Origin: Balanoglossus misakiensis
Taxonomy: Eukaryota > Animalia > Hemichordata
Length of the DNA: 64,000 nt
NCBI GenBank assembly: GCA_040954595.2
Contig: CM082584.2
Coordinates: 13,695,337 to 13,759,336 of the forward strand
Direction: 5' to 3'
Position numbers and translations under genes: made by a program
In this document: piece by piece, positions 4,452-27,979 of the stretch
How the letters are laid out: each line of letters starts with the position of its first letter
How positions within the stretch are numbered: position 1 is the first letter of the stretch
Notes under the pieces: model-generated
Database searches by the model: none
Told to the model about the DNA's origin: nothing
The model's input: only the letters and a program-made list of their open reading frames with translations

Positions 4452-4512
4452 ATGGGAACGTCCGTGGTATATGTGACATTGTGGTCGATAGTTGTTCTGG
4501 CGTCTCCGGTCG
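4452..4512 (+). CDS. RPTP exon 1, signal peptide [20 protein letters not shown](DA)
   Basis: Hydrophobic leader; donor G|gtaagt phase 1 matches exon 2; in-frame ATGs also at 4407 and 4440. Confidence 0.85.
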
Positions 4513-6017
4513 GTAAGTGAGCAAATTCAATTTCCATGGGAACGGCCGATAGTTCTCTTGTTGTTCATATTTAGAATGAGGGCCAAGGAAGACCCGAAAT
4601 CCATGTCAATTAAAATGTCACCCGTACTAGTTTAAAGATGTATTTTCTGTGATTTACTTCCGCGTTGCACTTACTATGCATAGTATATAGTTTTGGTCGA
4701 CAGACTCCCTAGTGACCTCTACCTATTTGAAAACAGCGCAGAATTTTCTGTAACAAATCGAACAATTCGGACTGCCTCTAAGGCAAAAAAAAAAAGAGTT
4801 TTGTTTAGCGTCCTCGCGCGCGTCACTTTTAAACATGCGCGTCGAGGCTTTTTTTTCGTAATTTTCGAACCCGGAAATCAACTAATCAGTGTTTTCTCCA
4901 GGATGCGCGATCGCGCGATTCCCCCTCTTTTACACTTGAAGCGCCCCTTGTAACAAGTTCAGAGGGCGACAATCGCCCCTTCGTGAGCAGCCCACCCGGC
5001 CAGTACATGCGCGTCCAAGCCTCCATAGCATGCACCGTCAGTCAAAGCACTGGGAAAACGGCCGATATCACTGCGTGCTGGCCTATACATTTTAACTTCC
5101 CACTCCCCAAAACTATGTTGTAGATGACTTTCACATTCATTCACGTGTAATTTAGCTCCAGGGCTATAGTGTGCAATTGTTGGAACAGCCTATCTGGATA
5201 CTGTCTAAATTTAGAGCACACACTCTGCACTCAAGTGAACTTGTTGTTATGGCGACTTTTGAAATTGGGTTGGCAGAACGTAACAATTTTATGCAAATTA
5301 AAGAAACTGCGTTCCTGCCATGGCGATTATCAAGAATGTATCAGTTTTCCATGACCTTGTTTTCTTACTTAGGAAGGAAAGTCATTCAATATGTACAGAG
5401 ACTGTTTATTTGAGTAGTGTGCCTAGCCACAGATGGGGAAGTGTAGGCAGAAATCTGAAGAAATATATACCACTTCAATTTATTTAACTATTAATGGTTT
5501 CACAATCTAATATTTTGGCAGCTAAACTGAAACTTTTAAAATCAAACAAGAAATTTTTTTCTCAGGTATAGTATTAAAGAAAGACACTATTGTTTTTGCA
5601 GTTGCATTTATTTTATTAATTTCACTCTACTTGCCAGGGGAGCAGTTAATCAGTCACTCTCCTACCACTTGTGTAATTAATTTCAGGAGTTATTTTCAGC
5701 TCTCCAGCATTTTTTTAAATTACATGCCCTGAAAGTTATGCAAGCTGGTGTCTTCCTCTGCAAAATCTACTAATTTAAAGTAGAAAAAAACTTTAACTGT
5801 TAATATGTTGTCAAGTTCACATGTAAAATATTGTAATTTACTTATGCTGTTTTTAATATGGAATGAAGGCAGTTAGTAAGTTAACGTTCAAAATTGTCAT
5901 TCCTTGATGTTTACCTAATTAACATAAATTATGCAAATCATGATTCCCCCCTACTTTGACCAAATCCCTCCTTAATTTTGGACTATTAAAGAAATATTTG
6001 CTGTTCTTGTTCCGCAG

Positions 6018-6049
<32 letters not shown>

Positions 6050-9000
6050 AGCCGCGTCACCGCATCAATTTTGAGATTTTGCTTGGACGCTAAACAAAAC
6101 TCTTTTTTTTTTTGGCCTAATGAAATTTTTTTTCAACACTGGATTAAAACATAACGTCGCTACTCGACTTCGGAAAAAAGTCTTCGTCCGAGTCGACCGT
6201 GACATGAGTCATTGAAATGGCGCACCATTTCGCGGCGCTTCCAGTCTGCTTCGGCGAAATAAAGACACACTTCTTCGAACTTGCCTTTCATTTCATTTCC
6301 GTCGCAATAATGAACTTTTCACACAATATGAAAATAAAAAATATCCTTTGGCTTAGTAGCAGACGTTTGGAAACTTTATTTTGCCCATTTTTCAAATTCA
6401 TAAGATCGCTCTTAAAGCGGAAATGAAATAGTTCGTTTTTGTTGTGAGTTGCTTGCCCTATTAGAACATTGTATTTTTAGGTCCCATTGGTATAGGCCTA
6501 TATACCATGGGACCTTATGGGATGGGTTGCATCTGTATGTATGTATGTATGGATGTATGTATGTATGTATGTATGTATGTATGTATGTATGTATGTATGT
6601 ATGTATGTATGTATGTATGTCTGTATGTCCGTCCACATCAAAAACTTGAAAACCGCTGCGCGTATCACCTTGATATTTGGTGTGCAGATGCAGGCAGGGC
6701 TGTAGATGGGAGTTTGTTCAAACGAAGTTGCCAGGCCCAAAAATATGCAAATTAGCCAGTAAAATGTGAAATTTATCAAAACTCTGAAAGTCAACAACTA
6801 CTGGTCAGATTGCTTTAAAAATCGGTATGCATGTACTTTATGTCAACCTCACATCGACCTGTAAGTGTTAAGTTAATATCATGGATGTTTTATTTTTTAT
6901 GAATTTTTTAGTCTTTTTATAACTTTACTTATACCTCTATGGTTAAGCTATCACGTCTTATTGTGGAATTCTGGTCTGTGCAATAGTCCTGTACAGTGAC
7001 TGTCTATTGGTCAGTGAGCACAATGGGGCCAAAATAAAAGGCAAATTTTTGGGCTCACCTGTAACACCTGCTTAACACATTAATTATGTGCATACCTAAT
7101 TCCAGGCTAACCAATAGGGCTATAGGTTTGGTTTTTGTTGAACATGGACCAGTATAAGGTCAAAATTTCTTGCCCAAATTTTGCATGACCTCAGGTGACC
7201 TTTGACCTACTTTATCTCATCTTGGCATCCAGAGCAGGTACAGACTTCGCGTTTGGAGGGTTGGGACTAAAATTGAAAAGCCAAAATTGGGGGTCACCTG
7301 TGACACCTGCATATCTTATTAATTATGTGCATACCTAATTCCAGGCTAACCAATAGGGCTATAGGTTTGGTTTTTGTTGAACATGGACCAGTATAGGGTC
7401 AAAATTTCTTGCCCAAATTTTGCATGACCTCAGGTGACCTTTGACCTACTTTTCCATATCTTGGCATCCAGAGCAGATATGCTTATTGCTATGTTGCTAT
7501 GTGCTATGTCCTCAAATGGGACCACAGTGTCCTTGTCGCTATTTTTTAGTATATTGTCTGGCTGTGGCTGCGGCCAGTTCCAAGTGTCGAAGCTGGGAGT
7601 CGACTGTTCTACCATAGATGTGCGTACTTGTGTGTATGTTGCCAATCCTTCCACCATGGTTGTTGAAAGTGTTTAGATATTCTCAATTTTACAGATAACT
7701 ACTAAACTAGCATAGCATGCAACAAAAAGGTCAGTCTAAGTCCCAGAGCTAAACGATCAAGCAAATTAAAACAACTAAACTGGTTTTGTTGAGAAGTTAA
7801 AGACTGAACACATTATAGAGCTATCCAGAGTAGAACAAGAAACCAGAGTTGATACTTGGGAGAAAAAGGCTAAAAAAAATAACCAGATGTTATGTTTACT
7901 GGGGCTTTAAGCATGTATGATTGGTAAAAAAAATATCGTCATTTCTTTTAATTGTGGATTTTTGATCATAATAAAAATCTGTAATATAGGGGTCACCATG
8001 CTTGTTTTTGAAATAAAGGGCCATGAACTTATTTGATAATTGAAGAAAAAATACTGAGTCAGTTCTTTTTCACCAATGGTTTGTCTATGGGCAAAACATT
8101 TAACAAAGTTTCTCTCAAGATGAGCGCAGTGACCGTACAATTTTATTTTACCAATAAATTTGTTTTTATTTGATTGAGCTGAGTGTAAAATTTCATGAAA
8201 ATGACTATAGTAGAATTGAGTTTTCTTGCAATTCTAAAAAAACCCACATTAGCTAAGAGAGTATTGGCCGGTACCTTTTTTAATTATCTGGAAAACTATC
8301 AATGTTCACGCTAGGATTTTTTTCTTTGTAGCCACACTCCAAGAGTGAGGAAATCAGAAAGGTTTCTGAAACCCTTGTGGTCCAGTGACTGTGCTAAAAG
8401 TAATGGAATTTTGGAGTATATTGTAAAAAGGGAATATTTAATATACAACTTCATGATCAATTCATTTAACCATCCTTTACAGATGCTCGGTTAGATGTCA
8501 CCGTCTTTAATGCCAAAGCATTACCAAGTTTAAGTGGTAGTTATTTCATTGGTGGATACTCAGCTGGTAACCCAAATGTTGTAGGTACAAATTTTGCATT
8601 TGGAAGAATCCTAGATACGGGTACAGGAGCTGCACTCCCTGCAGGCCATTTAATTGCAGACTTTAAAACCTATGCCAAGAAACTCAACTTACCCTCTGGT
8701 GCTGGCAGACCTGGTGTGTACTACTGTGATGCCAATGCTAACACTGGGGAAACTGAGAGACTGATAACAGTACAGGTTGCTGCAACTGGTAAGTTAGCAA
8801 CAAATCTGACCCCTGGGCATCACTATTTGCAATTTTAGTGACTATTTGAATGTTATAAATCACAAATAATGTAGAAACTGAATACTGCAGCTTCATTTTA
8901 TCTTTGTGTTTTCTTTTTAAAATTAAATCTCCTATTTGCAAGATTTTAGTTTCTGAACTGCAAAAACAGAAGCAATACATATCCATTAGGTCATTAAATG

Positions 9001-12000
9001 TTACAGTTTGCTGGTCTATGCTTGTGTGGGTTGATGGGTGGAGGGATGCATGTTTGGATTTGGGACAGAGGGAGGGAGGTAAGGATGGAGGGGTGGATTA
9101 ATTTTTGACGCTAATATTGTTTTATATGAGCATTCATAATTACTGTTTATGGTACATAAAATTATTTCAAATATATACATGTACAGACGATTTGAAGATC
9201 ATTTTCGTTGTAAGCATTTAAATCAAGGCTTGTTTATTAAGGCTGAAGATAATTGTATGTCTCTGCCAGCTGACATCAAACCAGAGAGTCAAACCAAAAC
9301 AGTGAGTTGGGGAGAAGATGTAACATTGACCATGACAACATCCACCATCGCTGAATCATCATTGAAATGGAGACATAATGGAATACAGAAAACAAACTGG
9401 GATGGTCAGAAGAGTATTACAATCTCATTTGCAAAAACCAGTGACGCAGGAATCTATGAATGTTACACAGATGACAACCAACGAAGTCAAGGACTGCATG
9501 GATTTATGAGACTTATTGTCAGAGGTAATGTATGGATTGTAAGATAAACATGTCAATATTTATCATTGGAAATTATCTCAAATTAACGAATACAAATAAG
9601 TAGCACTGCTATAAGTTTATTGAGTAACGTTCGATATAAAATTTGTAAAACAAGGCCATGATGAACACTATATACACTATACATGTATATGGTACATGTT
9701 ACGTTGTTCATCACTAAGCCAACCAAATTGGCATTTTATACTTGTAGCCTCTCAAAGAGTCAGACATCGTATATGAAAAAATAAATAAAAATATAAACAT
9801 GTTATGTGATTATACAATCACAATGTGCTCCAATCTGCACTGTACAGTGTACTGTTTTCAACTTTTCGCCAAGCAAGATGTGGAAAATCAAAGCTTATTG
9901 CTTACTAAGGCTTGTCTCAACCACCATTTGGGCAACTGTTACCTCAATGTGTATGGCGTGAGCCGTAGACACCCACCGTTTGAAAATGTTTCAGTAACTT
10001 TTGATGAAATTTTGTAGGATGAAGATTTTGGTCAGTCCGTCCTGCATGCTATTTAGATTTTTGGATTGAATTGTTGCAAGTGTCATTTTAAGAACTTTGG
10101 TGCCCCTGGGCCCCATGTTGTTTACTGCCTTTTATCTTGTATATTACTCACAAGATGAGTAGCAATGCAAGATGCATTATAGCTGTACAGATATTTAAAT
10201 TAAATTTGAAAATACATAAACCATTATATTCTCAGCATGTCTTTAATTTACCTTGAAATAAAATTACCCTTGAATTTACAACCTGAAAGAAAACCTGAGT
10301 AAATTCATATCCAATTCCCATTATAGATTGTCCAAATGGAAAATGGGGATTACCAGACTGTTTGTCTTCATGTCCAATATGTTACAATGGAGGAATATGC
10401 AACTCTGACACTGGTGAGTGCATATGTCCGCCTGGATTTAAGGGAAGTAACTGTGAAATTGGTGAGTAACATCATCATGTTATTATATTGCAACATACTA
10501 ACTGGCAGTTGTGTAGATGAATTGGAGAATGGAAGAGTTTCACTGCAAGTTGCAAAGCCAACTGTTTCAGCCCTTGTTTACTTGAAAGTGATGAATATTA
10601 GGCCTGGCATTGTGATATTTCTACATGTCCATGTTCGAAAGTATACACTGCATCACTGCATCCTCTCTGGTAAGTGATCAATTGAAAAAGGATCCCAAGA
10701 AGTAACAAGTACTTGATGTACAGTGATTTTGGCTAACAAGTTGTATTACACTTGTGACTTGTGAGAATCCACCACAGCTGGTTGTTGTTGAGGACAAATA
10801 TGGTCATTGTAGGATGACAGCATAGCTGTCTGTGATTTATACAAAATAAAGAGGATGCATGAACACCCCCATTTTCTGTTTTGTTTTCCAAAAGACACAC
10901 GTTCACACTTTAAAATAGCAAAGAATTTAATGGTTTGGAGGACCAGCATTTTTCTGGATTTCTGTCCCTGTGGTTAGGACTATAACCTTATAATAGTCAG
11001 ACAGCTACACATGTAGGTCCCAACATGATAGGTCATGGTCACAAACGTAGAACTGATTTGGAATAGCATAGTTAGGTATCTTACCTCACACCTGGCTCAT
11101 TTGCTTCCACAGAAAGAAAGTTTTACCCGCATGTGTTGAGGCTACAGGTGGGGGAAAAAGGCTCTTTTGACAATGCCCCAATCCTCTTTGAAAACAATTT
11201 TGAGGATACTTGTAATAAAAATATGTGGCATCATCATGTTTATGGAGCCTCATTCTTGAACATAAACCATCTAAATTCTCAAATTCGTGCATTAACACAG
11301 AGTGTGGGATCGATTTGATCCCACACTCTCGATCCCACACTCCCAGCGGCCAGGAGTTTGAGAAATTAAAATGAATGACAGTTCTGTATTTTGAGAACCG
11401 TCTTGTATTGGTATGAAAGGTTAATTTCTTTCTCAAATTTCCTTTATCATGAGTTCTGGTAGTAAAACTACCATGATCGCTGTAAATATTACTACACTTT
11501 TAGTTTACTTGCTTATGATATAAAAGATTTCTTAATTGATTTGTCTTCCAGGCTGTGGTAAGAATAAGTGGGGAATAGAGTGTGGTCGTGGGTGTTCAAG
11601 TAACAATGATGATGCATGTCGCAGCGTTATGTTGTGCATAGCTGATCCCTATGGGTGTTCATGTGGTGCATCATATGGAGGACTAGACTGTGCAACGGGT
11701 AAGTAATATGTTATGACCTTCCGTAGATCTGTAGTTCAGAGGGATGCATTGATTGGGCTCTAAATGTCAATTTCTTTTTCAATACAATCCAAAATGGCTA
11801 CCTTCGGATGGCTCTTTTTTGGCTCACATGTTAACACAAGCGTTAAGTTCCAATGGCATCAACTTGAAATTAAATTTTTTTCAATCAAAATCTCTTTCAT
11901 AGAAGGATTTTCAAATGTTGTCTATTAATTGTGTTAGTTCAAGCTCCATGCAAGGTAGTGTACATTTGCTACAGGTACACTGGTACGCTTAATCTTCCCC

Positions 12001-15000
12001 ACAAATAAAGCCAGCTATGTCAACACTAACAGACCCAGGATAAACTCTTGTAAGGAAGCCTTCTCCAATATGGTGTTCACACGGAAACCATTGAAATGTA
12101 TCTGAAATGTCTCAGCTCAAATACTGGCATTATGTGTGAATGGTTTAAGTGGTCCTGCAATGTTTCAGATTTGAGACGGTCCAGGCAGACCTGTGCTGGT
12201 GTAAAGGATTAACATGTTTTTGCTGTCCATGGGGCTGAGGGTCAGGGTCTATGCATAAACTTTGTGTGTGGGGACACAAAGCGACTCAAAGGATTGACGC
12301 TCTGTGTTTACGAATGGCAAATAGTGTCTCTGAAACGTTTCCAGTTTTACCAAGTGTGAACATGGTACAGTAGACATAATATCCTTGCCTCACATGACTT
12401 ACAGGAGGTGTGAACGTTTTGATATCCGCAACTTGAATACGACGCATTGTCGACCAAACTTCGTGTAATAAGCCCTAATTATAATTCTTTTATGATTATT
12501 AAACTTTGACACAAGTGTAATCTGTCCATGTTCACACATAATGCAGAGTTCATTGTCCATAATTTCGAATGGAAATATGGTATAGGAGATACAGACACTT
12601 ACAGTTTACACAGCTGCAGTGTTGCATTATACACATGATGACTGACAATGAGGGCAACAGTGTATTTTGATGACCGAGGGCGCTGCTAGTCACAACTAAA
12701 ACTGTCTTGTTTTCCCGCCCGAGGGAAAACAGACTGTTTTGGTGTGACTGGCAGTCCCGAGGTCATCTAAAATACACTGTTGCTCGAATATGTCAGTCAT
12801 CATGAGATTTGTAACACACCAAACACGGAATTTTATCAAGACGGGGCAACAGTACCGGGCAGAAACTGATCGAAATGATGCCCTAGGGAACAGTTCAAAA
12901 TGACTAAGGTCACGTGACAGCGTATTGACGAATCACGATCGAGGGTTCGCTGCATGGTGTGTTACAATAATGATTCTCTCAACGTCTACAGAGTATATGC
13001 CTGCTTTGTCTTCTTTATCTTGACAGATTGTTCAAGTGGCACGTATGGTTCTGGATGTACACAGACGTGTCATTGCACCAATGGGTGTGATATAGCTACA
13101 GGTGCATGTATCAGTGGAGGTACATGTCAGTCAGGGTGGAGTGGAACAAATTGTCAGGGTAAGTGTCAGATTTTTCCGCGCAGGAAATGCACAAAGTGTT
13201 TTTCCATAAACATTGTTACATCCTATTTTATCATGTGTTCCTTTTAAATACAAAAGACTTATTTATTTTCACCAATAGCCAAATATTTGTAATCATTCAG
13301 TATATTTCTTTTTGTAGTCCCTGATTTATGCCCTACTGGTTTCTATGGTGACCTGTGCAGTTATGAATGTCACTGCAAAGACAATGCAGCATGTGACAGG
13401 ATAAATGATTTGTGTTCAAATGGAGAATGTGCTCCAGGATGGATTGATGTTCATTCAAGTGGTCACTGTCAGCAAGGTGAGTTACTGAAACTCAGCTTCC
13501 ATTTCATTTGTGTTAAATTACTGATTACTGTCCATTACCGGTATATGGTATTAGGATTTTCTCTTGAAGTAATTAGCAACCTTTGAAAATATTTGGTTCA
13601 TATGCTAATTTCTCAGAAAATTTGAGCTGGCTTCTCTACATGCCTGTGGTTATTTTCAGTGGGGAAGTCATTAGTCTTTGATGCACACTTTGTGCTTACA
13701 TGTTGGTTACACATGTACAGTACACCCCATTTGGTTGTACAGGCACCATAAGGTTTGTTGTAAGTTATTGGTTGGGTGGGGGTGATGATGTGTATTTGAT
13801 GTTGAAGTGTAATGATGGCTGGTAGCTAGCATTTCACCTAAAGGATCAGTGTATCACTACCACACCTGGGTTATTGAGACATGATACCCCATATGATCTT
13901 GCAATTTGATTATCAGTTTTCATTAAAATTAGACTCTGTTGTGTTGTTTTATCAAGCAATGAATGACTTATGGCTTCAATTTTCAGATGGCTCTCCAAAA
14001 TTAATAGAATTCAAGAATACGAAAGTAAACCCAGGTGAAGAGACACACTTTACATGTAAAGGTCGAAGCAATCCAACTCCACAACAGAATCAAATGGAAT
14101 ATTATTTAATCTCTGGATCACCAACTGCTGTAATGTTTGATGATATTGAAGAGGAAGCAGATTATCAATACACAGCAAATGCCAGAGGTGTTACTGTGAA
14201 CATTGGCCAGATCTATTATTGCTACATAAACATTTTTCCTTTTGGCAGTGTTAGTGAGCCGTTATCCCTTGAGTTGTATGGTAAGTAAAAGTCAATATTA
14301 TCAAATGCTTTAGTTTTGTGATTTCACATCATAAGCATGATCAAAAAAGGTAATTCTACATGTTGTGACTGTTATTTAGAGAACACTCAGACTGCAGTAG
14401 AGCAGCAAAATTTGAGATGTAAATTAAATAAAGTATAAATTGTTGGAATGGTCTTTATTCGCGAATGTGATGCTGTTTACATTACAGAGATATAATGCTT
14501 TCTTTTTAATAAAAAAAGAACAAAATGAAGTGATACTCCACAGTCAAATAAACAAATTCTTTGGGCTCTGTCAATAGATTAAGTGTGTCATCCATCTCAT
14601 GTGAACAAGTAGAAAGTATTTTTGCAGCAAAGGTTCCATCTCTATAATGAAATACCAATTGAAGTGACCAATTAATAGCTTCATACCCATGATAGTTTGC
14701 ATTTATCAGATCTTTTGGTTTGAATATTCAGCACTACCAAGATTTGCAGATAATAACAAACCAGGCGTTACAGTTCAAGCAACACAAGCAACCGTAAGCT
14801 GGCAGAAATGGGATTCAGAAAGTGATGTTGGTGATGGACCTGTAGAAGCTTACTTAGTTTACTACAAAAAGGCATCAGATGATGATTGGACGTCTCATGG
14901 TACAATTACAGTATCTGATCCTGATCAGTCGAGTTACACTACAGACATCACTGTTTTAGACTGGTCTACTAGTTATGATTTCACAGTGACTGTCAAGAGA

Positions 15001-18000
15001 CCTGGACTCAAGGGAGAAGGGAGCAAGGAAACTTTAACCTCAGCCACTACACTGTGTGATGGTAAGTGATATAGCTTTGCGCAGAGCATTGGTCACATGT
15101 ATAACAGGACAATTTGATTTCAGTTGAAATTGTTGTATCACAAATCAAACTTATTGCTTTCAGCAATAACTTTGATATTTGGGCACATTCACTAATTTTC
15201 ATGAAGTCTGTGTACATGTGCACACTAGCTGTCACATGTCTATGGCCTGAAACGTTTGTTTTGGCTATTAATGTAGGACAGGAAAAATTCTTGTGCTCTG
15301 ATGTTTTAGTTTTGTACATTTAATATTGCACAAACTTCACTCAATATAAAAATGTTCTTTCTTCAGTGCCCTCAGAAGGACCATCAATTAAAAGTATAAC
15401 ATCAACAGACCCAAAAGAGCTTGAAATTACAGTGGAGGTAAGGGCAGCAATTTGTAGTGTGTACACTTTGTACTTCTGTATTATCATATGAAATCATTGT
15501 ACAGTGGGTATATAGTTACTATGATACTGATTGACTGAGGGGAGGGACCTGTTCAAGTAGTTAGTCCATTTATGTCAGTGGTATTACTGTATACTGTTTA
15601 TGTACATCCTCATAAAGTGGCATTTATGTTAATACATTGTTTCACAGCCTCTCATCTGGTGGTCTGTTTCTATAGCTGCTGTACACTGATGCCCCCCTAG
15701 CATGTCACAACATCAGCATTGGATTGTGCAGTAGCAAAACTAGGCTACTACTTTTGCCAATTGGTAGGCTAGTAGCATGGTCAGAAGAATTAGACATTTT
15801 AGTAATAGTATCCAGCAATGGGACTGGGAGACAGTTTAACTACTTGTATACAAATGTACACAATCAAACTGGGAACAATAGGTCTTCAGGTTTATTAAAC
15901 GTAATAGAAAATTTCTTGATGTACATGTACAGTACATACTGTTCACATTGTAATAGTGTTGTTAACTTTTGACTTTATGACAGGTACCTGACACATCAGA
16001 GATCAAATGTAATCCTGATGGATACATTGAGAATTTCAATTTGAAGTATAATAAGACAAACACTCAGGAAGAATACACAGAGTTACTGGTGAATGATGGC
16101 ACTGAACGTACATTTACAATTGATGGATTACTGGCATACACTGAGTATGATGTGATGGTGTCATTTGACAACAAAAATGAACAAAGTCCATGGAGTCCAG
16201 TGTCAACTGCAAGAACGGATGAAGATGGTGAGTTGAAACTCAAATTGCTCTAATTCCGAGGGAGAATGTTACGGGTCATTTTTGATAGGTGTGGAATCTG
16301 ATATGATATATAATACCGCAAATAAAGAAATCAATAAGCAACAAAAGTTAGCAAAACCAGATCAAAGAGCATACATGTATACATGAAGGCATGCATGCAT
16401 GCATGCATGATGAATCAGACTGATTGCCTGATTGAAAACAAAATCATACCATTCATAGAACATAAGTAAAGTCACCTGAAGAGGAAAACTACCTGTAAAG
16501 ATAAAATTTAAACGCATTTCATATGGAACATATAAATCTTACATGTAATTAATGTGTGTATTATTTTCATGCATTTTCCCACAGTGCCATCCGAACCGAG
16601 AAATGTGACATTGAGACCTGCAGTGACGACCATAGAAGTCCAGTGGTTAATACCTGATCCAGTAAATGGTATCATCACAAAATATAAAATTATTTACCAG
16701 GAAACAAGCGATGTAAACACAAAGAAAGAGAAAGAAGTGACAGAAGATCTGAGTGGTGTTAACACATATCTCATAACCAACCTTACAAATGATATTTCAT
16801 ATACTGTTCAGGTAATTAAAACATGTATTTCCATAATTTTTCCATGAAATAATTATTCTGTCAAATAGCAAATAGTCAATTATATGTCCAATGTAATGTT
16901 GATTACTTGCAATCAATTTGTTGAAGAGAGAAAACTTGTCAGGCCAGGGCAAACATGCAAATGAGGCGATGAGTACTTGGGGGGAGGGGAGTCCACCATG
17001 TGTCTTTAATTCTATGTGAATAATTTGAGAAAGAAGGAACACACAAAAAATTGCTGTTGACTAACAAGTTCAAAAAAATAGTACACCCAATTTTTAGTGC
17101 AGTTATTTGTGTATGAGTAAATCAATGCTTATATGCAATTTTCAGGTTGGAGCATTCACAACCCCAGGAATTGGACCTTTAAGTGATGAGAAAAGTGCCA
17201 CAACAACAGTGACAAGTAAGTTGATGTGTTTTTCTTTACATACTATAGTCAAAAATATGATTATAGGTACTAGAGGGGATTACTTAAAACCTTTGGCAAC
17301 ACGAACAGCATGCTGATCATGTATGTACTCAAACATACTGATTATCAATTCAATATGTTGACCCAACTGTAACATATACTTGAGCCGATATGAGTATGAA
17401 AATCTTACTTTATATGAAAGTTTTGCTTTCAACAGTATAGCTGTCTCCTATATTGTATTAATACTGTTTTACAGTTGTGTAGTAATTGTTTTCTTCCCTA
17501 TTTTGACTCTTTAGTTCCACGGGAGCCCACCAGCCTAGAAGTTGGAGATATCACAGACACTGAGATTCAATTGCTTTGGACAGATCCCTTTCCATTTAGT
17601 GGAGACATTCAACACTATGGGGTAAGATTTTCAGATTTATTGTGGATTAAAGAAATAATTGTTTAAAAGTCATGTGAAAGCATTGACACATGGTGCTTGT
17701 TTTATGATTGTTATTTTGAGTATTGTGGACTATCCTTTAAATGCACAGAGGGGGAATTCTACTACCTGTTTGGTCAGATGTGCTATTGCTGGCACAAGGA
17801 TAACGTACAATTGCATACACATATGTCAACTTCTGTTTTGATAAAGACCCATTTTCTCATGTCAGAAGCCACTTTCTGTCATTATCAAAGAATGTTTCAG
17901 ATCTTTTAAATGGGATTGAACAAATAAGAGTTTGTTTGGCAAGTTGTAAATATGTTTTTGTCAATAAAGCTGACTTTGCAATTGACTTGTTAACAGAATT

Positions 18001-21000
18001 TTAAATTCCATCTTTCAGATATCATACACTTCCACTGAATCAGTGTTCAAAGACACACTGATGGAAACCCGATCATTGCTTGTTGAAGGCACAAAAAATA
18101 CTCACACACTTACAAATTTAAGTCCTGGAACGACATATAGCATTAATGTGAATGCCAGCACTTCCAAGGGATTTGGAGAACCCTCAACTGTGTCAAGTGG
18201 CACTTCATTTACAGGTAAGTAGATTCTTATTGTACAGTATAAAATCCTTTTCACAAATGAGAGTGCATGTTGGGAAACCTTGATTGGAAAAACAGTCCTT
18301 TGATTTGCCTCAGTATATTATTGCCATTCTGAATTTCAAAGGTAGGAAATTGGAGCTTTTGTCATGCAGTAAGAAGGATCTGACAGTTACTCTATAGTCA
18401 TTCACTTTAATTTCATGTGACACTCTACAAGAATCCACCACCCAAGAAATCCAGAACATTTGCACAGTAAATTGATTCGTTGTGAACTTATTGTGTAAAT
18501 GAATTTGGCCAATTTGTTACCCATCATCTACCGTTCTACTGATTCCTCAGACTTTTCTTGCCTTTCAGTTGTAGATTATACTCCATATACCTATCTATCA
18601 ATAATTTACTTTCAGTTGATATTTCAACAACGCTGCCCATGACAGATGTATCAACTGATGTTGTACACTCTGAGACGAAAGCACAAGTTACTCTACCAGG
18701 CCTCTCAGAGGACTCAGGCATTTCTGAAGACACCACACTCGTGTAAGTGTAGCACAGTTTTTTTCATGGTAATACAACTTTGTCTTGTACTCATTATAAA
18801 CTGAACCTCTTTTTGCAGAACCTCGTCCCATGTTCCCTTTCTGCATTTGTCCAATTCACTAGTAAATGAGACTCTTCGTTTCTAACTGTGGAATTTTCTA
18901 TTTAACCAGACACTTTTGGGATTGAACTTTCATTGATCTGTGTTGTTGATTTTGTGTGTCTAACTAACTAGAGAGAAAAAAATGTATAATAAATATATTT
19001 CATTTTTCAGTGACTACATCATAGTTCTGGAATATGAGCAAACCATTGAGACAAGACGACGACGAGAAATAGATACTTCAAAACTTGGAGAGTACGATCC
19101 TTCTGGTCCACCTTACTACATCACAGCATTACTCCCTGTCAATAATTTACCCGAGACATTTATAATTGGTGATGACGGTGTGTATGGTGGTTATTCCAAT
19201 GTTCCACTCACTACAGGGAGACAATATGGTGTCTACTATGGACTTAGGAGTGATGTTGATGGGGTAAGATAATTTTGAGCATTAAAAGATCAATTTATTC
19301 TTCAAATATGTATATATCAAAAGTATCAAATATAATTCTCCAAGCAAAGAGGAAGCAAGCTAGCAAGTCTGTCGGTCACATGTGTTGATCTTATTTTTAA
19401 ACTGGCCATCTTCTGACAGCAAATCAGTTTTGTATACATTATTTTCTCACCCCTGATCAGTGGCCATGTAGGTTGACCAGACTCTAACTTCTGATAAACT
19501 TTGTGGTGGTTCACAGACACATCTTGGTTTCAGAGATATTAATTAAAGTGAATTTCTTGGTGTGTTTTTTACAGGAATCTGTCTACCACCTTGATGAAGA
19601 CCCAGCACTGTCCTTCAGGGGTATGTGACACAGTGATTTCTAACTTGTTTGCATTCTGAGGGTTGCTCATATGAACCAGTTTATGCACTATGTCCTGTCT
19701 GTTTCTGCTGTAGATAGCTGCTAAATGACATGGCTATGTTTTTAATAGTCCAGTTACATTTTTTTCTAATATGTTTAAAAGGTGGTGGCCCTGAGCCAAC
19801 AGGATCACCAATAGGTGCCATAGTTGGTGGTATAGTGGCTGTTGTGGTAATCGCTGCATTGGCTGTCGTAGCTGTCTTCCTATTCAGACGGTGAGCAACT
19901 TTGATTTAGAGCCAATAATAGTAAGAGGCTAATGTTATACCTGTTTGAACTTGACTTCATTAAAACTCAGTATAAGAACACTGTGCAATTAGTATCTTAA
20001 ATGAGCAGAATAAATTATTTAAGAAAAAAACTTGTTAAACTTTTCATTTTGTGTAACATTCAAGAGATGGAGGACATGGTTTGCTCTTTATTTTGGAACT
20101 CCTACACTACAAATTTATTGAAAATCTGTAATATGAAGGTAGACTATAACTTGTATTTCATTGTTCTTCATGTTATCTGATGCAGGTATCGACCAGACCA
20201 GGATAAAGAAAAAGACAGTCAAAATGAGCTTCACCTGCCGTGCCAGAGTTCTGAAAAGGACAAAGAATTCAAATATCAAAATGTGGATTTTGATAATCTG
20301 AATTCTGGTAAGAATTGAGTTGAAATATTTTGTTTTAATTTGTACAAAGGATAAATTAGTAATAGCAGATTTAATGTAACTATGTTAAATTGATATGCCT
20401 ACAGATGAACAGGCAAGAAAACCCATCAACACCGAATCACAGTATGCAAATGTGGATGAAATAAGCAAGAAACCAAACAGAAAGAATGGTTCTCCGATGA
20501 CAGAGTCGCCCTATGCAACCCCTGATGACATCCACCCACAAGTAGATAGCCCACCTAAGATAGCAAAGAAACCAGTCATGGATAACCCACCTAAGCCACC
20601 ACAGAAACCTGTAATTCCTGCCAGAGACAATGCACCTGCACCTCCAGAGGTCGCCTCCAAGAAACCATCGTTGCCAAAGAAACCACAAGCTATTCCTAAG
20701 GCAACACTGTCGCCGAGAGACTCGGAGCATGTCATCCTTGTGGAAGAGTTGTCCGAGTGCATCACGAGGAAGAGAAAGAATGATGAGTTTAAGAAAGAGT
20801 TTAAGGTGATATGCTTTTGAAATGTGATTGCCTGCAATGTATTGAAAATTGAGTAATGTGAGGTCACTCATTTGTGTGTGACTTTAGAGAAATCCAGAGA
20901 CTGCTATTCTGTAGACTGAAATTTTACTTTGATTTCTTTTTTAGAGTCTCCCTGCTGGCCAGGTGAAGCCAGTATCTGACGCCAAGATTCCAGACAATGC

Positions 21001-24000
21001 CAAGAAGAACAGATTCCGTAACATTCTTGCGTGTAAGTAAAATGAGTTTTCACTGTGTGAGATGATTTCATTGAGCCAAAACAATCCACAAATGGGAATA
21101 CCCTGGGGTTGTGTGTGGTTATAGAAAATTCCATTTTAGTCTGGTCATTTTCTTGAAAGTTTCACAAACGTTGCTTGAAGATTTGTGTTGTCCCATGAAA
21201 CAGATTTGAAGGTGAATTTCACAGGTGGAACCTAATATAATAATTATGAATGAGTTTTGGGCAAACATGTGGTGCACATTCTTTGATGTAGAATTTCTCA
21301 TTGTATTATGTTACATCCTTTTTTAGATGACCATTCTCGTGTACGGCTAGATCTTATTGAAGGAGATCCACATTCGGATTACATTAACGCAAGTTATATC
21401 GATGTAAGTTGAATCTGTTTTGCATGGTCAGTTCACATTCTCAGCAACATACCTTATGAAAAAGAACTGCTGCATTATTCAGGATGTTTATGTTGTAGAC
21501 AGCAAATTTTGTATCAATCTGTATAGTAAAATTTAGCAGTGGAGATATTTTATACTTACCGAGTCTCATCTTGAAACTTTATTTTTCACTAATTTGTGAA
21601 AGAAAATTCAATTCAGATAAAATGAAATGTAATCATAGCATGGACAAATGTTTTGTATTCTGGCTTCCTAATTGAGGTTTTAGACGCTGCACTGCCCAGA
21701 GACATACTGATACAATCCACCATAACAAGCAAGTTCAGTACCTTGCTGTGGTAATTGAAAACATTGTAAATTTAATGGAAGCCGAGTTTTTAAAACTGTA
21801 CAGGAATTTTGAAATTTTTTGCTTGATTGCCAGGGTTACAAGAAGGAGAAGGCATATATCGCTGCACAAGGTTTGTATTACAATTTTTTGGCACTGTTCA
21901 CTTTTAGACCGTGATTGTGGTGTTGATAATGTACTGTACAATGTAGGTGACTTGTCCTGATAGAATACGATTTTTCACTCTGTATTGAACTGACTTGGCC
22001 TTAAGCCACACTTCCAACATGCTGTTGTATTACACATGAGCAATTCACCCATGCTGCAAACCCCAAAAAGAGTTGGTCACATATGTACCATGTGAAATAT
22101 TTTATCACTGTGTCAGTGTTTGTACATTATGTGATAAGATTCAAATGTACTGACTTTGTTTATGAAAGCGTGCCAAGACAAAAAGGTATTCAGTAGTTGT
22201 GAAAAACGATTACTTGTCCTAACATACACCAAAACAACTACATATTAATATTACTGATATTTGCTATAAATGAGACTTATACCTGGTGTGTTTTTATACA
22301 GGACCCAATAACTTTACAATAGATGATATGTGGAGGTTGATCTGGCAGGAAAATGTTACTATTGTCTTAATGGCTACCAACTTATCAGAAAATGGAAAGG
22401 TATTTAATTAATTTAAAACTTCCAAACTAAGTGCTGTAATTTCTGCAGTAATAAAATCAATATCAGCAACCAAGGCAATGGGCAAAAAGAGTCATGTCTT
22501 CCAGACAATAATCATCACTTTTCATGTGTTTTAATGTCTACCAGGTCAAATGTCACCAGTATTGGCCTGAAAAAGAAAGTCAATGGTATGGAGATATATG
22601 TGTTACACTGGCAGGCAAGGAATCATTTGCAGACTATATGGTCAGGACGTTCAAAGTCCAAATGGTAGGTTTATAAACTGTTAATATCGCAATTTGCATT
22701 AGTTGGTAGAGTTGACATTTATTTGTGTTACATGAAGTTGACAAGTAATTATCCATAGATTTGATAAGAATGTTTCAAAAGCCAGGTGGAGACAGGAATT
22801 CCAGCCACAAAGACCCATAATACATCAGCTGATATACAAGCTCTCCATAGTCTTGTTACGTGTAGTTGGCAACTTTTTTTCATAATGCAATTTAGTCCAT
22901 AGCAGAACTAAATTTTCTAAGCGTCCTTGGAATGCGGAAGCCCTTATATATCCAAGGAAACTAGTTATGGCAATCTTTTTATGCTCAGGTGACCACGGCC
23001 ACTTACATTTCTAAATCTCTGTGATTGGTGCGGTAAATTCCAGGTGGCGAAATTGATACAGGGTGGTTGAATCAACAGAAGGGCTAATAGAGGTTTATGC
23101 TATTGACTGTTCAACCCTAAAAGTTCCCAGAATTTATTAAGATATTTGTACCAGGGATCAAGGGTACAGCTTAGAGTTTTATGATGCTTTCAGTTCTGCA
23201 AGAAAAACAAAAAACGCTCATGTCAACGCAAAGTTATTTTCTTTTTTCTGAAATAATTGTATTGCCACCAGAACACTGTAGGTGTACGTTATCAGAAACT
23301 GACCATGAGAAGAAATAACAATGTTTATTTCCCCCAAAAAAACAAGTAAAGATAAAGTGTAAATTTACAAAGTGATTCAATTATACATAAAGGAGGAAAT
23401 AGGAGTGCCAAAAGATATCTGTCCAGCAACTAATCAAGTCTACCTCCATACTTATAAACCTTTTTGATAAGAAATCTGGGTACAGTACTAAGTGTAATTT
23501 ATCTTTCAGGATAACTCCAAAGTTCGTGTTGTCAAGCAGTTTCACTTCACTGTCTGGCCTGACATGGGCGTGCCGATCTATGCCACTGCGGTACTGGCTA
23601 TTCTGAAGCATGTCAAGTCTTGCATTCCACCGAACTCTGGTCCGTTGTTTGTACACTGCAGGTAAAGCCAACTGATGAAATGTTCTTTAATAATCTACAG
23701 TCAAAACCCTGATGATATGCGAATAGCTGATGTCATTATAGAGAATAAAGCTGCAAGAGAGGGCTGGAGATGTTCTGACAACCACTGATGCGATATGCTC
23801 TGGCTTTTCATGTGAGGAAGCGTCACATCTACTTGGTCTCAAACCCAATCTAGCCGTCCTCTTCTATTAAAGCTTATTTCATTCTCCATTTGAAAATCAT
23901 TATCGTGTAAAAATCAGCATGCTCAATTGATTTAAAAAGGCAACAGTCACAATAGAAATGCCAAAAATTAAACCAATGTAGTCAAACTGACGGAGTTCAA

Positions 24001-27000
24001 CATTTGAATATTGCAGTGCTGGAGTGGGTCGAACAGGTACCTTTATTGCAATTGATGCCCTGTTGGAAATGGCCAAACAAGAAGGCAAAGTCGACATCTA
24101 CAACTTTGTCAGGAAATCCAGAGAAAACAGAATGAATTTTGTGCAAGTAGAGGTATGAGTCAGTCATCTTTTTTGATAGTTTTCACCACAGTTTTTTCGT
24201 GATAGCTTTTGTTTTAATTTTCACAGTCATCACATACAGAAAGTGATGGATGTGTTTACCCTTAAAACATAGGATCCATGAAACATTATTTGCAGATGAG
24301 TTATGGTATTGTGCAGTTTTAAGAAAGAATATAAAATCTAACAACAAATAAATGTCAAAAGTGGGGACACACGCCATGGCAACTTGTTTACATGTTCTTA
24401 AAATATTCAAGGAGTTTGCATACCAATGTCCTACTTAACAATAAAAAATACAATAGCTGAGGTATGCTTGACAGACACTGATAAGGACTCGATCCTAAGG
24501 TATGCGATAATTTATACAGTCTTGGGCGTTGAGTGTACTACTTTGCCAAAGGTCACTTTTGTTTTGAATAATGGGAAACTGTGCATAGATAATCATGGTG
24601 CATGGAATAATTTTATGTATATTTAGGAGCGAATTTTTCCTGATAGATGATTGCATGAGCATATAGCAGTGTTCCAAGAGTTTTTTTCTGAATGCATAGC
24701 ATATTCTACTAGTAGCCACAAATTCAAAGTAGTTGTAGTTGTTGCAGTAGTATAGGGGTACAGTTTGTGAATTTCTCTGTTGTTCATTGCACACACAGGA
24801 TCAGTACGAGTTCATCCACACAGCTCTGATGGAAGCCACTGTGGCCGGCAGCACTGCCATAACTGCATCTGATTTCAGACAAGTGTTTGGGAGGCTGCTG
24901 AAAGTTGATAGGCAAACCCAGACAATAGCATTAGAGACAGAATGGAAGGTAAGTGTGGCAGAGAATGACTACGATATATGTCAGTGGATGAGGAGTACAA
25001 TACAATACAATACAATATTACAGTAAAATACTACAATACAGTGCAGAACCAATCAAGCATGATCAGAAAAAAAAGTGGATTACATGTTCAGATTTAAACA
25101 ATCGATATGTTTTGTTGTATTCTGCAGAATCTTGGTAAAGTAAGCCGTGTTGCCAGGGATGATGAACTCTCTGTTGGACAAGCACCGGAAAACTCGCACA
25201 AGAACCGATTCCCAGATATCGTTCCATGTAAGGGAAACATGTCTATAGACATTCTCTCGGTGTACTCTTAGTGCCAAATATGGGGGCAGATTCCAATGAC
25301 CACATCAAAAATTGAAGGGACATGCATTTGGCAAAGTAGCAGATACAGTATAGAAGTAGTAGCTAGTGTACATCAGATATCAATCAAATGGGAAGTAAAT
25401 AGGTCTGAATTTGTGATAAGCACATCCAAATATGAGAAAAATAAACAAGGAACTCTGCAGGGGCACATCAAACTACCGGTACAGATTAATTTTCTGCGTA
25501 ACCGTACATTTCCCCTTTTTCTATTTTTGTGATAGCTATCTTGAATCATAGACCAGGGTCTATGCTTGGATGTGGTGAATACAACAGAAACAAATGCTCA
25601 ATTGAGTTAGATACCAAAATACGAATATGGACACAAACAGACTTGAATCACTTATTCTGTGTTTGTAAAACATGTATACTGCCTACCAATATTGTTAGTT
25701 TTAACAGATCTGAAATAACTTAGGTAACAAATGTTTCCTTGTCAACAGTGTTGACCAATTTCCACTTACATTCATAGCATTATAAGAATTACTGAATTTT
25801 ATGTACCACTAGGGATTTCACTTGCTTTATTGAACGTATATTTCTCTTTACAGTCAACAGATATCGTCCTCATCTGATGACCCACATTGCTGACAGCAAT
25901 TCAAATGATTACATCAATGCAAGTTTTGTCAGTGTAAGTGCAGATTTCATGATAAACTGAGCTGTCAGTATTTATAGTGTGGTGTTCGGAACCATAGATT
26001 CTCTCTTCTTTTCTTACTGTGTGGTGGCAGTATGAGTTGGCACAGAGTCCTTCCAACACATTTGTGGAAACTGCCAGGATTGTGGGGTTGCTGTTATAGG
26101 ACCCTTCAATCAGCTAACAGTTTAGTTGAGGACAAATATACCTCTCCAAGGTTGATCCTCTATAGTGGCCCATTCATTCTTCTACATGGGCATCAGAGGC
26201 CGCACAGAATTTCAACACTAGCCGCATGCAGAGATGAATAATTTACTTTAATTTGTAAACCGGTAGCTGGTTGCATCAGTATGTAACAACATTCTTAACT
26301 GTTTTCACCTTAGCATATTCAAGACTTTGCTATATCAAGGATTATATCGTCTTTGGAATGATGAATTTGTTGTGATGGCTATATTGACAGATATATTCCT
26401 CTTTCTTCACAGGCTTATGTTGAAAAGGATGCTTTCCTTGTGACCCAGACACCATTACCGAGCACAGTGGTCGATTTCTGGAGAATGATCTATGATTACA
26501 ATTCTTATTCCATAGTTGCCTTGGACGCCATGAACACAAAAGACACAGTAAGTTGTACTTGCCAAACCAAACATTTTTTGTACAAATGATAATATTATCA
26601 TCATATGAAAGACATGTCAAATCTGGTTCTTGCATGACCTCAACTGCATCTGCCCTTACTTTCTCTCCACAGAGCATTGGCATGTACTGGCCTGAAGATG
26701 GTGCCCTTCAATGTGGACCGTTTAGTATTGAGACCGTCAGCAGAGATGTCACTGGCAGCATTGTCATCAGAACTCTTACTCTCACAGATGTAAGTATCAG
26801 TGTTAACCATGGGTAGATTTCTCACAGAAACGACATAAACCCCATGACAATATCAGAGGTTGAAACCTCTAATCATCTATTGATTCTGTTAGAAGAATTC
26901 TCATACTGTCTGATTAGCACCAGCAAACACTTTTTGACAGCATTCTGACTGAGAACATAGCCATATGTTTCTGTATTTAAATGTGTAGAAGAATTCTCAT

Positions 27001-27979
27001 ATTTGCTGCATTAAAACCTGTTGTGATCTTCTTTCATGATGTATCCAGCAACGGGGAAGTATGCGAACCATCCAACAATTCCAGGTGACAGGTTGGCCAG
27101 ACAACAAACCCAGACCAAATCAAAAAGGTGTCTTTGTAGAGTTGATGGGTATTGTTGAGAAATGGCAACAACAGACAGGCAATGGACCAATCACTGTGCA
27201 CTGCATGTAAGTATATACATGCACTTCAAGCAAATTACAGTTTGATTGTTTCCCTGAAAACAGTTCTCTATTGTGATTTGGAAGATGCCTCCTGAGTAAA
27301 ACTAGTGGCAATCCAGGTTTTCTCCAACAACAGTAAAATTTCTCTCACAAATAAATGTAATGTTTTTTTGTCTCCATCTCAGCAATGGTATTGGTCGAAG
27401 TGCCGTGTACTGTGCTACTGTCTCTACATGTGAACGAATCAAAGTCGATCAAATGGTGGATGTTTTCCAGGCTGTCAAGACACTCAGAAGTAACAGGCCA
27501 AACATGATTGAATCATATGTAAGTTGATGGTGTGATCATCTAACCTAATGTGTATACTTTTGCAAGAGGACATGCCATTGGTTGTCATTGAATGTCTGGG
27601 CTCCATACAGGTCATTTCATCAGCCAGTACAGTTAGGCTTATGTGGACAGGCCTCCAAGCCAGTGGAATAATGTATTTGCTAGTAAAGCTATGTTTATTT
27701 TGGGTGGGGCTCTCTCAGAAACATGCACCCCTTGGCAGAACATGACCAACCTAACCAAGATTGGCAATGCTGAAACCACTGAGTCCAATTGGTCAATTTT
27801 TTTGTAACTACTTCATATTGTCCAATCAAACTGAGCCATTTGACACTATGCAATGAATATGTTATTTAAAATCTTGTCTCACATGTGTTTGTCATTCTTT
27901 TCAGGATCAGTACAAGTTCTGCTATGAAATCATCCTGGATTACTTCGAATCCTTCGACACTTATGCCAACTTCCAGTAA
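4452..27979 (+). CDS. Receptor-type protein tyrosine phosphatase with Tie-like ectodomain (SP-Ig-Ig-EGFx4-Ig-FN3x4-cleaved FN3-like-TM-Pro-rich-PTP D1-PTP D2), 36 exons, 5451 nt CDS, 1816 aa
   Basis: 36 exons join through GT-AG introns with consistent phases and no internal stop. Motifs: [30 protein letters not shown] (D1); DYINASF, WPD, VHCINGIGRS (D2); [27 protein letters not shown]. Confidence 0.95.
4782..6117. mobile_element. Non-autonomous DNA transposon, 1336 bp, TAA TSD (Zator- or PIF/Harbinger-like)
   Basis: TIRs of about 32 bp: GGC(A)11GAGTTTTGTTTAGCGTCC at 4782-4813 and its reverse complement at 6085-6117; TAA on both sides (4779-4781, 6118-6120); no transposase ORF. Confidence 0.8.
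6534..6628. repeat. (ATGT)n microsatellite
   Basis: More than 20 tandem tetranucleotide units. Confidence 0.97.
7051..7476. repeat. Direct tandem duplication, period 239 bp
   Basis: 7051-7237 is near-identical to 7290-7476 (TAATTATGTGCATACCTAATTCCAGGCTAACC...CTTGGCATCCAGAGCAG). Confidence 0.92.
8483..8788 (+). CDS. RPTP exon 2, Tie-type Ig1
   Basis: [36 protein letters not shown]; phase 1-1. Confidence 0.9.
9270..9524 (+). CDS. RPTP exon 3, Tie-type Ig2
   Basis: [36 protein letters not shown]; phase 1-1. Confidence 0.93.
10327..10461 (+). CDS. RPTP exon 4, EGF-like 1
   Basis: [45 protein letters not shown]. Confidence 0.95.
11552..11698 (+). CDS. RPTP exon 5, EGF-like 2
   Basis: [49 protein letters not shown]. 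Confidence 0.95.
12074..12362. mobile_element. Possible degenerate Harbinger-like MITE
   Basis: Inverted TGTTCACAC / GTGTGAACA near the ends plus internal inverted CTGAAATGT/ATGTTTCAG-type motifs; no clear TSD. Confidence 0.35.
12634..12966. mobile_element. Fold-back (double hairpin) non-autonomous repeat
   Basis: Imperfect palindrome of about 170 bp at 12634-12804 (CATGATGACTGACA..TGTCAGTCATCATG), then a second inverted pair TGTAACACACCA (12810) / TGGTGTGTTACA (12955). Confidence 0.7.
13027..13158 (+). CDS. RPTP exon 6, EGF-like 3
   Basis: [44 protein letters not shown]. Confidence 0.95.
13318..13476 (+). CDS. RPTP exon 7, EGF-like 4
   Basis: [53 protein letters not shown]. Confidence 0.93.
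13987..14280 (+). CDS. RPTP exon 8, Ig3
   Basis: [42 protein letters not shown]. Confidence 0.92.
14732..15061 (+). CDS. RPTP exon 9, FN3-1
   Basis: [45 protein letters not shown]. Confidence 0.94.
15367..15437 (+). CDS. RPTP exon 10, FN3-2 N-half
   Basis: [24 protein letters not shown]; phase 1-0. Confidence 0.88.
15984..16227 (+). CDS. RPTP exon 11, FN3-2 C-half
   Basis: ..[30 protein letters not shown]; phase 0-1. Confidence 0.92.
16585..16811 (+). CDS. RPTP exon 12, FN3-3
   Basis: [41 protein letters not shown]. Confidence 0.93.
17146..17215 (+). CDS. RPTP exon 13, FN3-3 end
   Basis: [23 protein letters not shown]; phase 0-1. Confidence 0.9.
17515..17621 (+). CDS. RPTP exon 14, FN3-4 N-half
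   Basis: [36 protein letters not shown]. Confidence 0.92.
18019..18214 (+). CDS. RPTP exon 15, FN3-4 C-half
   Basis: ..[25 protein letters not shown].. Confidence 0.93.
18616..18742 (+). CDS. RPTP exon 16, membrane-proximal FN3-like domain start
   Basis: [28 protein letters not shown]..; phase 1-2. Confidence 0.85.
19011..19263 (+). CDS. RPTP exon 17, furin site and membrane-proximal domain
   Basis: [41 protein letters not shown]. Confidence 0.93.
19575..19620 (+). CDS. RPTP exon 18
   Basis: [15 protein letters not shown]; phase 0-1 bridges exons 17 and 19. Confidence 0.82.
19782..19890 (+). CDS. RPTP exon 19, transmembrane helix
   Basis: [28 protein letters not shown]. Confidence 0.93.
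20186..20307 (+). CDS. RPTP exon 20, juxtamembrane
   Basis: [23 protein letters not shown]; phase 2-1. Confidence 0.88.
20405..20805 (+). CDS. RPTP exon 21, Pro-rich insert plus wedge region
   Basis: [52 protein letters not shown]. Confidence 0.9.
20945..21032 (+). CDS. RPTP exon 22, D1 (KNRF loop)
   Basis: [29 protein letters not shown]. Confidence 0.94.
21327..21403 (+). CDS. RPTP exon 23, D1
   Basis: [26 protein letters not shown]. Confidence 0.96.
21834..21870 (+). CDS. RPTP exon 24, D1
   Basis: [12 protein letters not shown](G). Confidence 0.94.
22302..22399 (+). CDS. RPTP exon 25, D1
   Basis: [33 protein letters not shown]. Confidence 0.95.
22545..22664 (+). CDS. RPTP exon 26, D1
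   Basis: [31 protein letters not shown]. Confidence 0.95.
23510..23661 (+). CDS. RPTP exon 27, D1 WPD loop and catalytic Cys
   Basis: [24 protein letters not shown](S). Confidence 0.96.
24017..24152 (+). CDS. RPTP exon 28, D1 P-loop and Q-loop
   Basis: [30 protein letters not shown]. Confidence 0.96.
24799..24948 (+). CDS. RPTP exon 29, D1 end and D1-D2 linker
   Basis: [27 protein letters not shown]. Confidence 0.95.
25128..25227 (+). CDS. RPTP exon 30, D2 start
   Basis: ..[14 protein letters not shown]. Confidence 0.93.
25540..25571. mobile_element. 18-bp palindromic insertion with near-perfect 7-bp TSD (P-element-like footprint)
   Basis: CTTGAAT|CATAGACCAGGGTCTATG|CTTGGAT. Confidence 0.65.
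25854..25933 (+). CDS. RPTP exon 31, D2
   Basis: [27 protein letters not shown]. Confidence 0.94.
26413..26547 (+). CDS. RPTP exon 32, D2
   Basis: [29 protein letters not shown]. Confidence 0.95.
26673..26789 (+). CDS. RPTP exon 33, D2
   Basis: [28 protein letters not shown]. Confidence 0.94.
27049..27206 (+). CDS. RPTP exon 34, D2 WPD loop and Cys
   Basis: [30 protein letters not shown](I). Confidence 0.95.
27383..27518 (+). CDS. RPTP exon 35, D2
   Basis: [31 protein letters not shown]. Confidence 0.95.
27905..27979 (+). CDS. RPTP exon 36, C-terminus, stop TAA
   Basis: [24 protein letters not shown]. Confidence 0.95.
   Translation, partial: DQYKFCYEIILDYFESFDTYANFQ

Follow-up and report, generated by a model that had tools for sequence, protein, structure and literature searches.

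The window analysed here is a 64,000-nucleotide stretch of the hemichordate Balanoglossus misakiensis (GCA_040954595.2, contig CM082584.2, positions 13,695,337 to 13,759,336), and it holds a receptor protein tyrosine phosphatase (RPTP) gene at 4452..27979 on the + strand, on which all parts of the gene given below lie. Its 36 exons, joined by hand into a gene model from genomic DNA alone, form a single open frame with a predicted product of 1816 amino acids; all 35 introns are GT-AG, and a Glandiceps homologue, P0013, aligns with the product end to end at 57% identity. The predicted order is signal peptide, two immunoglobulin domains (Ig1, Ig2), four EGF exons, Ig3, five fibronectin type III domains (FN3-1 to FN3-4 and a last, membrane-proximal one; FN1 to FN5 where proteins are compared), membrane span, Pro-rich stretch, and two phosphatase domains (PTP D1, D2) where TIE receptors have a tyrosine kinase domain.

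Exon 1 (4452..4512) encodes the signal peptide, predicted from sequence. Exons 2-3 (8483..9524) encode Tie-type Ig1 and Ig2, which reach 10 bits (weak) and 25 bits on TIE profiles, and exons 4-7 (10327..13476) are four EGF-type exons, compared with three in TIE, scoring 103 bits on the TIE EGF profile. Ig3 (exon 8, 13987..14280) is flanked by phase-1 introns at 13477..13986 and 14281..14731 and is followed by FN3-1 (exon 9, 14732..15061), an intron (15062-15366), FN3-2 (exons 10-11, 15367..16227), FN3-3 (exons 12-13, 16585..17215), FN3-4 (exons 14-15, 17515..18214) and the membrane-proximal FN3 (exons 16-18, 18616..19620), which matches Pfam Fn3_PTPRU at 34.7 bits (cut-off 24.7) and contains a predicted furin site, RRRR, at 19054-19065. 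Beyond the membrane span (exon 19, 19782..19890), exons 20-21 (20186..20805) carry the Pro-rich juxtamembrane part with Y-x-N motifs. D1 (exons 22-29, 20945..24948) keeps its WPD, C-x5-R and Q loop, with KNRF as the pTyr loop, and is predicted to be active, whereas D2 (exons 30-36, 25128..27979), with an HCINGIGRS loop and a C-terminal YANF, is a predicted pseudophosphatase. No MAM match was obtained on the 13 exons tested or on full-length P0013.

The Ig3-FN3 stalk between TIE and R2B

An earlier, sequence-only reading had described the stalk as R2B (PTPmu/kappa)-like, and the motifs on which it drew are all present: GDGP (14830-14841), RPGLKGEG (14998-15021) and TTLC (15046-15057) in FN3-1, TDEDVP at the end of FN3-2 (split by intron 16228-16584), an 18-residue motif in FN3-4 (18124-18177) and a 17-residue motif in the last domain (19159-19209). 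Alignments to PDB 2v5y show the PTPmu counterparts that it named. A profile of eight ectodomains from the family to which the gene belongs scored 220 bits on the TIE2 head (4k0v), 139 on PTPmu, its best non-TIE PDB match, 87 on PTPdelta and 37 on TIE2 FN1-3, and the top ESM Atlas cluster was PTPRT-like (0.96). The affinity to R2B is borne out, whereas the domain count is not that of R2B: the gene has five FN3 domains, and passages of PMC10815196 describe an R2B stalk of four.

Within the stalk this likeness is uneven. On PTPmu, residues 165-463 are matched by Ig3-FN1-FN2 (62 bits) and residues 474-694 by FN4-FN5 (72 bits); FN3-3 is passed over, and FN3-4 pairs with FN3 of PTPmu. Seven of the eight LAR FN3 profiles give FN3-3 and FN3-4 scores of 22-46 bits, and these two domains are therefore generic. 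The likeness exceeds chance: the FN3-1 exon alone found PTPmu FN1 (E=0.0036) as the best single-domain match among the four sequences listed at E<=1, none of which is a TIE2 chain. FN3-2 shares a B-C loop Cys (15999-16010) with PTPmu. The last FN3 matches PTPmu at E=5e-4; its motif is not exclusive to R2B, since PTPdelta matches too (E=0.014) and starfish kinases also contain it. Specific R2B likeness is, as judged from these alignments, confined to Ig3-FN1-FN2 plus the last FN3.

The proposal that an R2B phosphatase exchanged its MAM-Ig head for a Tie head at the intron 14281-14731 is not supported. This intron is indeed in phase 1, but so are all introns following exons 1-9, 11, 13 and 15 (phases run 1-0-1 within FN3-4 and 1-2-0-1 within the last FN3, a pattern that R2B genes may share); every head boundary is in phase 1, so phase cannot place a swap, and 14281-14731 is not special in this respect. 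The PTPmu alignment begins in the PTPmu Ig, at chain residue 165, opposite the family Ig3. A profile of Ig3 from seven invertebrate rows scored TIE2 Ig3 at 31.1, PTPkappa Ig at 30.4 and PTPmu Ig at 28.1 bits, making TIE2 Ig3 and the R2B Ig equally similar; five multi-Ig chains ranked above them reach no more than 20.3 bits in a single domain, and domain-wise scores were not displayed for other IgLON chains at 30-32 bits. The R2B-shared unit therefore starts at Ig3, with the intron 13477..13986 as the upstream limit of R2B likeness, and these alignments do not support a breakpoint at 14281-14731.

FN3-1 had also been suggested as the hinge that links Tie and R2B ectodomains. The link is real, although strongest between vertebrate TIE and R2B rather than through this gene. 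On a profile of six vertebrate TIE FN1 domains, PTPkappa FN1 (74.4 bits) and PTPmu FN1 (73.7 bits) stand directly below TIE2 in a list of 81 PDB sequences, in which the chain that follows reaches 36.5 bits summed over several domains; sea-urchin TIE FN1 scores 70, Balanoglossus FN3-1 23, other invertebrate family rows at most 41 and LAR at most 14 bits. The reverse profile, from seven invertebrate FN3-1 domains, gave 44.7 bits for PTPmu FN1, 23-33 for TIE and at most 22 for LAR. A tree built from 97 FN3 domains, R2B not among them, unites the 16 FN1 domains (SH-aLRT 94; TIE subgroup 98), so that FN3-1 falls with TIE FN1; FN3-2, -3 and -4 have no supported grouping with TIE or LAR, and 47 of 94 branches are unresolved.

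Two sequence marks separate these groups. W-x-x-W occurs in FN1 of 11/11 invertebrate non-TIE rows and 0/5 TIE rows and is missing from R2B, FN3-1 representing the invertebrate subtype of an FN1 common to TIE and R2B; the FN2 B-C loop Cys occurs in 9/9 invertebrate rows and in PTPmu, and in 0/5 TIE rows. R2B therefore seems to resemble TIE in FN1 and the family in FN2. The Cys that closes FN1 also occurs in TIE1 and an acoel protein, and this motif is therefore not R2B-only. Fold comparison of an FN3-1 model (pLDDT 94) ended in ties (Z 11.5-13.3) that single out no family; by identity, PTPmu FN1 (30%) and TIE2 FN1 (27%) were the two highest of 50 rows. Foldseek with the FN1-3 model of P0014 returned generic FN3 matches (TIE2 at rank 14, PTPmu at rank 32), and of 108 metagenome stretches matched by the TIE FN1 profile, none was confirmed.

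Three further observations concern FN3 number and head type. Sea-urchin TIE (P0315 from Diadema, P0027, P0038) has four FN3 domains. The third FN3 of TIE1 resembles the second of TIE2 at the C-terminal strand, so the FN3 domains lost from the two receptors may not be the same ones. P0067, from the acoel Convolutriloba, has a Tie head and family-type FN1 and FN2 without an enzyme domain.

Phosphatase domains and spread of the family

Among chains that contain D1 only, the scores were PTPkappa 488, rho 483, mu 456, alpha 451 and 2nv5 (which we take to be PTPdelta) 445, an order reproduced with P0013 alone, followed by epsilon 434, gamma 425 and PTPRU 401. In a D1+D2 tree of 25 rows (of 50, after long branches and near duplicates were dropped), the 14 family rows form one clade (100/100) apart from LAR (100/100), PTPRA-like and PTPRZ sequences, which places the PTP domains outside both the LAR (R2A) and the R4 (PTPRA/E) clade. 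The family clade splits into protostomes and ambulacrarians, matching the species tree, and a 49-row quick tree agrees; in the latter the EGF-rich mollusc rows P0247 and P0072 fall inside the family clade on long branches. Following the D2 Cys, 26 of 29 family rows have a hydrophobic residue and 20 of 21 other rows have Ser. PTPRK D2 was mutated L1384S to restore a canonical loop, according to passages of PMC6440744, and we read L1384 as the same position as this hydrophobic residue. An ESM Atlas search with D2 gave no discrimination. The amphioxus RPTPs P0142 and P0172 carry MAM and fall with PTPRA; they represent a separate fusion of MAM to a phosphatase.

Tie-headed phosphatases occur in several non-chordate groups. 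A search with the FN3-1 exon yielded 19 relatives among 102 candidates, all hemichordate (14 Ptychodera, 5 Glandiceps). Profiles built here detected a Tie-type EGF pair in 88 of 150 representatives, 22 of them with PTP and eight with kinase domains. Thirty representatives were looked up by name, 16 of the 22 PTP ones among them; the 15 Tie-headed PTP representatives with names comprise 13 echinoderms, one hemichordate, one scorpion and no chordate. The named members come from starfish, urchins, sea cucumber, crinoid and scorpion, and the build recurs in a member of a Limulus cluster, while three amphioxus Tie-headed proteins are kinases. Sharing of this build among hemichordates, echinoderms and chelicerates means that the gene is not a local chimera. 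Heads differ upstream of Ig3, with F5/8 in starfish and, in snail P0284, kringle/EGF ahead of the same Ig3-stalk-D1-D2.

Tails vary as well. Hemichordate paralogues have, as gene models, D1+D2, a single D2-like domain or no enzyme; in P0008, P0009, P0012, P0015, P0021 and P0023 the same ectodomain is followed by a lone D2-like domain or by a short tail with tyrosine motifs. Many of the hemichordate paralogues lie on one contig per species. In Patiria miniata, the kinase gene model P0224 and the tandem-PTP gene model P0232 share 75% identity across 1008 amino acids of ectodomain, windowed identity being 73-93% through the FN3 run, dropping in the last domains and gone at the membrane. The P0224 kinase is 47% identical to TIE1, and that of the urchin TIE orthologue 66%. 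The two may form a paired on/off receptor set.

Elsewhere in the 64-kb window no paralogue of the gene was found. Upstream, 1711-1962 (+) is an exon of a CD225/interferon-induced transmembrane-like gene (Pfam PF04505, 26.2 bits; cut-off 27.1), and none of 17 open reading frames tested in 28100-64000 had a Pfam match. Intron 1 holds a 217-base direct repeat (7024-7476, 91%) and intron 5 a 171-base inverted repeat (12634-12804).

Origin of the head and possible function

The combination of parts can be compared with four known receptor groups. R2B (PTPRM, PTPRK, PTPRT, PTPRU) shares with the gene an Ig-FN1-FN2-FN3-FN4 series that aligns in order with its Ig3-FN1-FN2-FN4-FN5, a membrane-proximal Fn3_PTPRU domain with a basic site (not exclusive to R2B), tandem D1/D2 and the best D1 scores; the gene differs in lacking MAM, in its Ig-Ig-EGFx4 head, in three Ig domains instead of one and five FN3 instead of four, in its FN1 subtype and in its PTPRA-like C-terminus. 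TIE1/TIE2 share the order Ig1-Ig2-EGF-Ig3-FN1 and its sequence, with other EGF and FN3 counts; the gene has a phosphatase instead of a kinase, four EGF exons, the FN2 Cys in another loop and more FN3 domains. R2A (LAR, PTPRD, PTPRS) likewise has an FN3 stalk with a related membrane-proximal domain and tandem PTP, but it forms a separate PTP clade, with an Ig x3 head and Ser in the D2 loop. The Biomphalaria SudRes1 MEGF/galactose-binding-domain RPTPs, compared by description, also combine an EGF-bearing head, tandem PTP and clustered paralogues, and the passages of PMC12297450 concerned describe neither a Tie Ig head nor an FN3 stalk.

We favor the reading that the gene is a Tie-headed RPTP of an old bilaterian family, probably either the stem from which vertebrate R2B arose or its invertebrate sister; in chordates, MAM would then likely have taken the place of the Ig-Ig-EGF head upstream of Ig3. 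This corresponds to the second alternative of the sequence-only reading, an ancestral state related to both families, which fits best. From the stalk alignments, D1 scores, the D2 loop and the FN2 Cys we infer that R2B belongs within or beside the Tie-headed PTP clade. Passages of Fearnley et al. (PMC6440744), which cite Chen et al. 2017, place the first appearance of R2B in chordates; the swap was thus likely the reverse of the one proposed: MAM displaced a Tie-type head. The opposite course, in which an R2B gene shed its MAM-Ig head and acquired a Tie one, with the junction at FN3-1 or immediately upstream, accords with a stalk and D1 that lean to R2B, a head that is Tie-like at 220 bits on TIE2 (4k0v) and a phase-1 intron. 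It is nevertheless improbable: Ig3 is already R2B Ig-like, the same build, present in echinoderms, scorpion and the Limulus cluster and congruent with the species tree, predates chordates, R2B is reported only from chordates onward in the passages cited (PMC6440744), and the additional FN3 and EGF exon match neither parent. Less probable still is that generic FN3 motifs were matched, or that the model fuses two genes. FN3-3 and FN3-4 are generic, the fold comparison ties and the model comes from genomic DNA alone, but a single frame passes through all 36 exons, P0013 matches throughout, and the FN1 matches of 45-74 bits exceed the roughly 27 bits or less of the other single FN3 domains shown.

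The strongest competitor, though distinctly less probable than the stem or sister reading, holds that the family is an RPTP subfamily of its own that chordates have lost, to which R2B would be a cousin by older duplication that kept a TIE-type FN1 as an ancestral trait. R2B FN1 (74 bits) is as near vertebrate TIE FN1 as is sea-urchin TIE FN1 (70), D1 margins are small and LAR stalk scores lie near PTPmu; on the other side stand the common FN2 Cys and D2 loop type, and a complementary spread in which 0/15 named members are chordate. Several results also weigh against a stem or sister position. PTPmu exceeds PTPalpha on D1 by 5 bits only, with PTPRU below both, and two-domain R2B chains are absent among the matches listed. 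The best 120 of 6245 D1 homologues, mostly LAR, include no R2B name and no MAM-Ig-FN3 domain set; the searches were seeded from the Tie-headed family and so could have overlooked a MAM-Ig R2B in invertebrates. No tree contains an R2B sequence, its placement coming from scores and motifs. R2B FN1 is TIE-type rather than family-type (74 vs 45 bits) and without W-x-x-W, the C-terminal YANF is PTPRA-like, and a stalk-weighted profile barely separates PTPmu (136 bits, summed) from PTPdelta (132) and LAR (131), the PTPmu lead shrinking because FN3-3 and FN3-4 are generic.

A bolder version is conceivable, and we put it forward tentatively: vertebrate R2B would itself be the real chimera, chordate heir of a bilaterian Tie-headed phosphatase, with a MAM head and a TIE-kinase FN1 on a phosphatase-type FN2-to-D2. 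Kinases and phosphatases would have exchanged Tie-type ectodomains repeatedly, and paired on/off receptors like the starfish pair would be the outcome.

TIE2 binds its ligand through Ig2, and by analogy the Ig2/EGF head may bind a ligand in the same way. Furin would cut the protein at RRRR and leave a two-part surface receptor, as for PTPRK, whose cleavage is described in passages of PMC12067748. D1 is predicted to remove phosphotyrosine, and D2 with the Pro/Y-x-N stretch may recruit substrates, a role described for D2 as a pseudophosphatase in parts of PMC6440744 and PMC7320164. Such a receptor could act as a ligand-tuned brake on similarly headed kinases rather than as a MAM-dependent homophilic spacer; in R2B, homophilic trans adhesion proceeds via MAM-Ig/FN1-FN2, according to passages of PMC6440744. 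Snail EGF-headed RPTP clusters are linked to parasite resistance in passages of PMC12297450, and by this analogy an immune role for the family is a lead only.

In the literature searched we found no Tie-headed RPTP and no TIE-R2B FN1 link, and phosphatome surveys (sea urchin, Byrum 2006; pan-genome, Chen 2017) may already name the family. The passages that describe the chordate origin of R2B do not name a precursor. If the family is the R2B stem, a head swap would explain how R2B arose, TIE and R2B ectodomains would be joined through a common Ig-FN1 unit, and invertebrate kinase and phosphatase receptors with matching heads would be suggested as paired switches.

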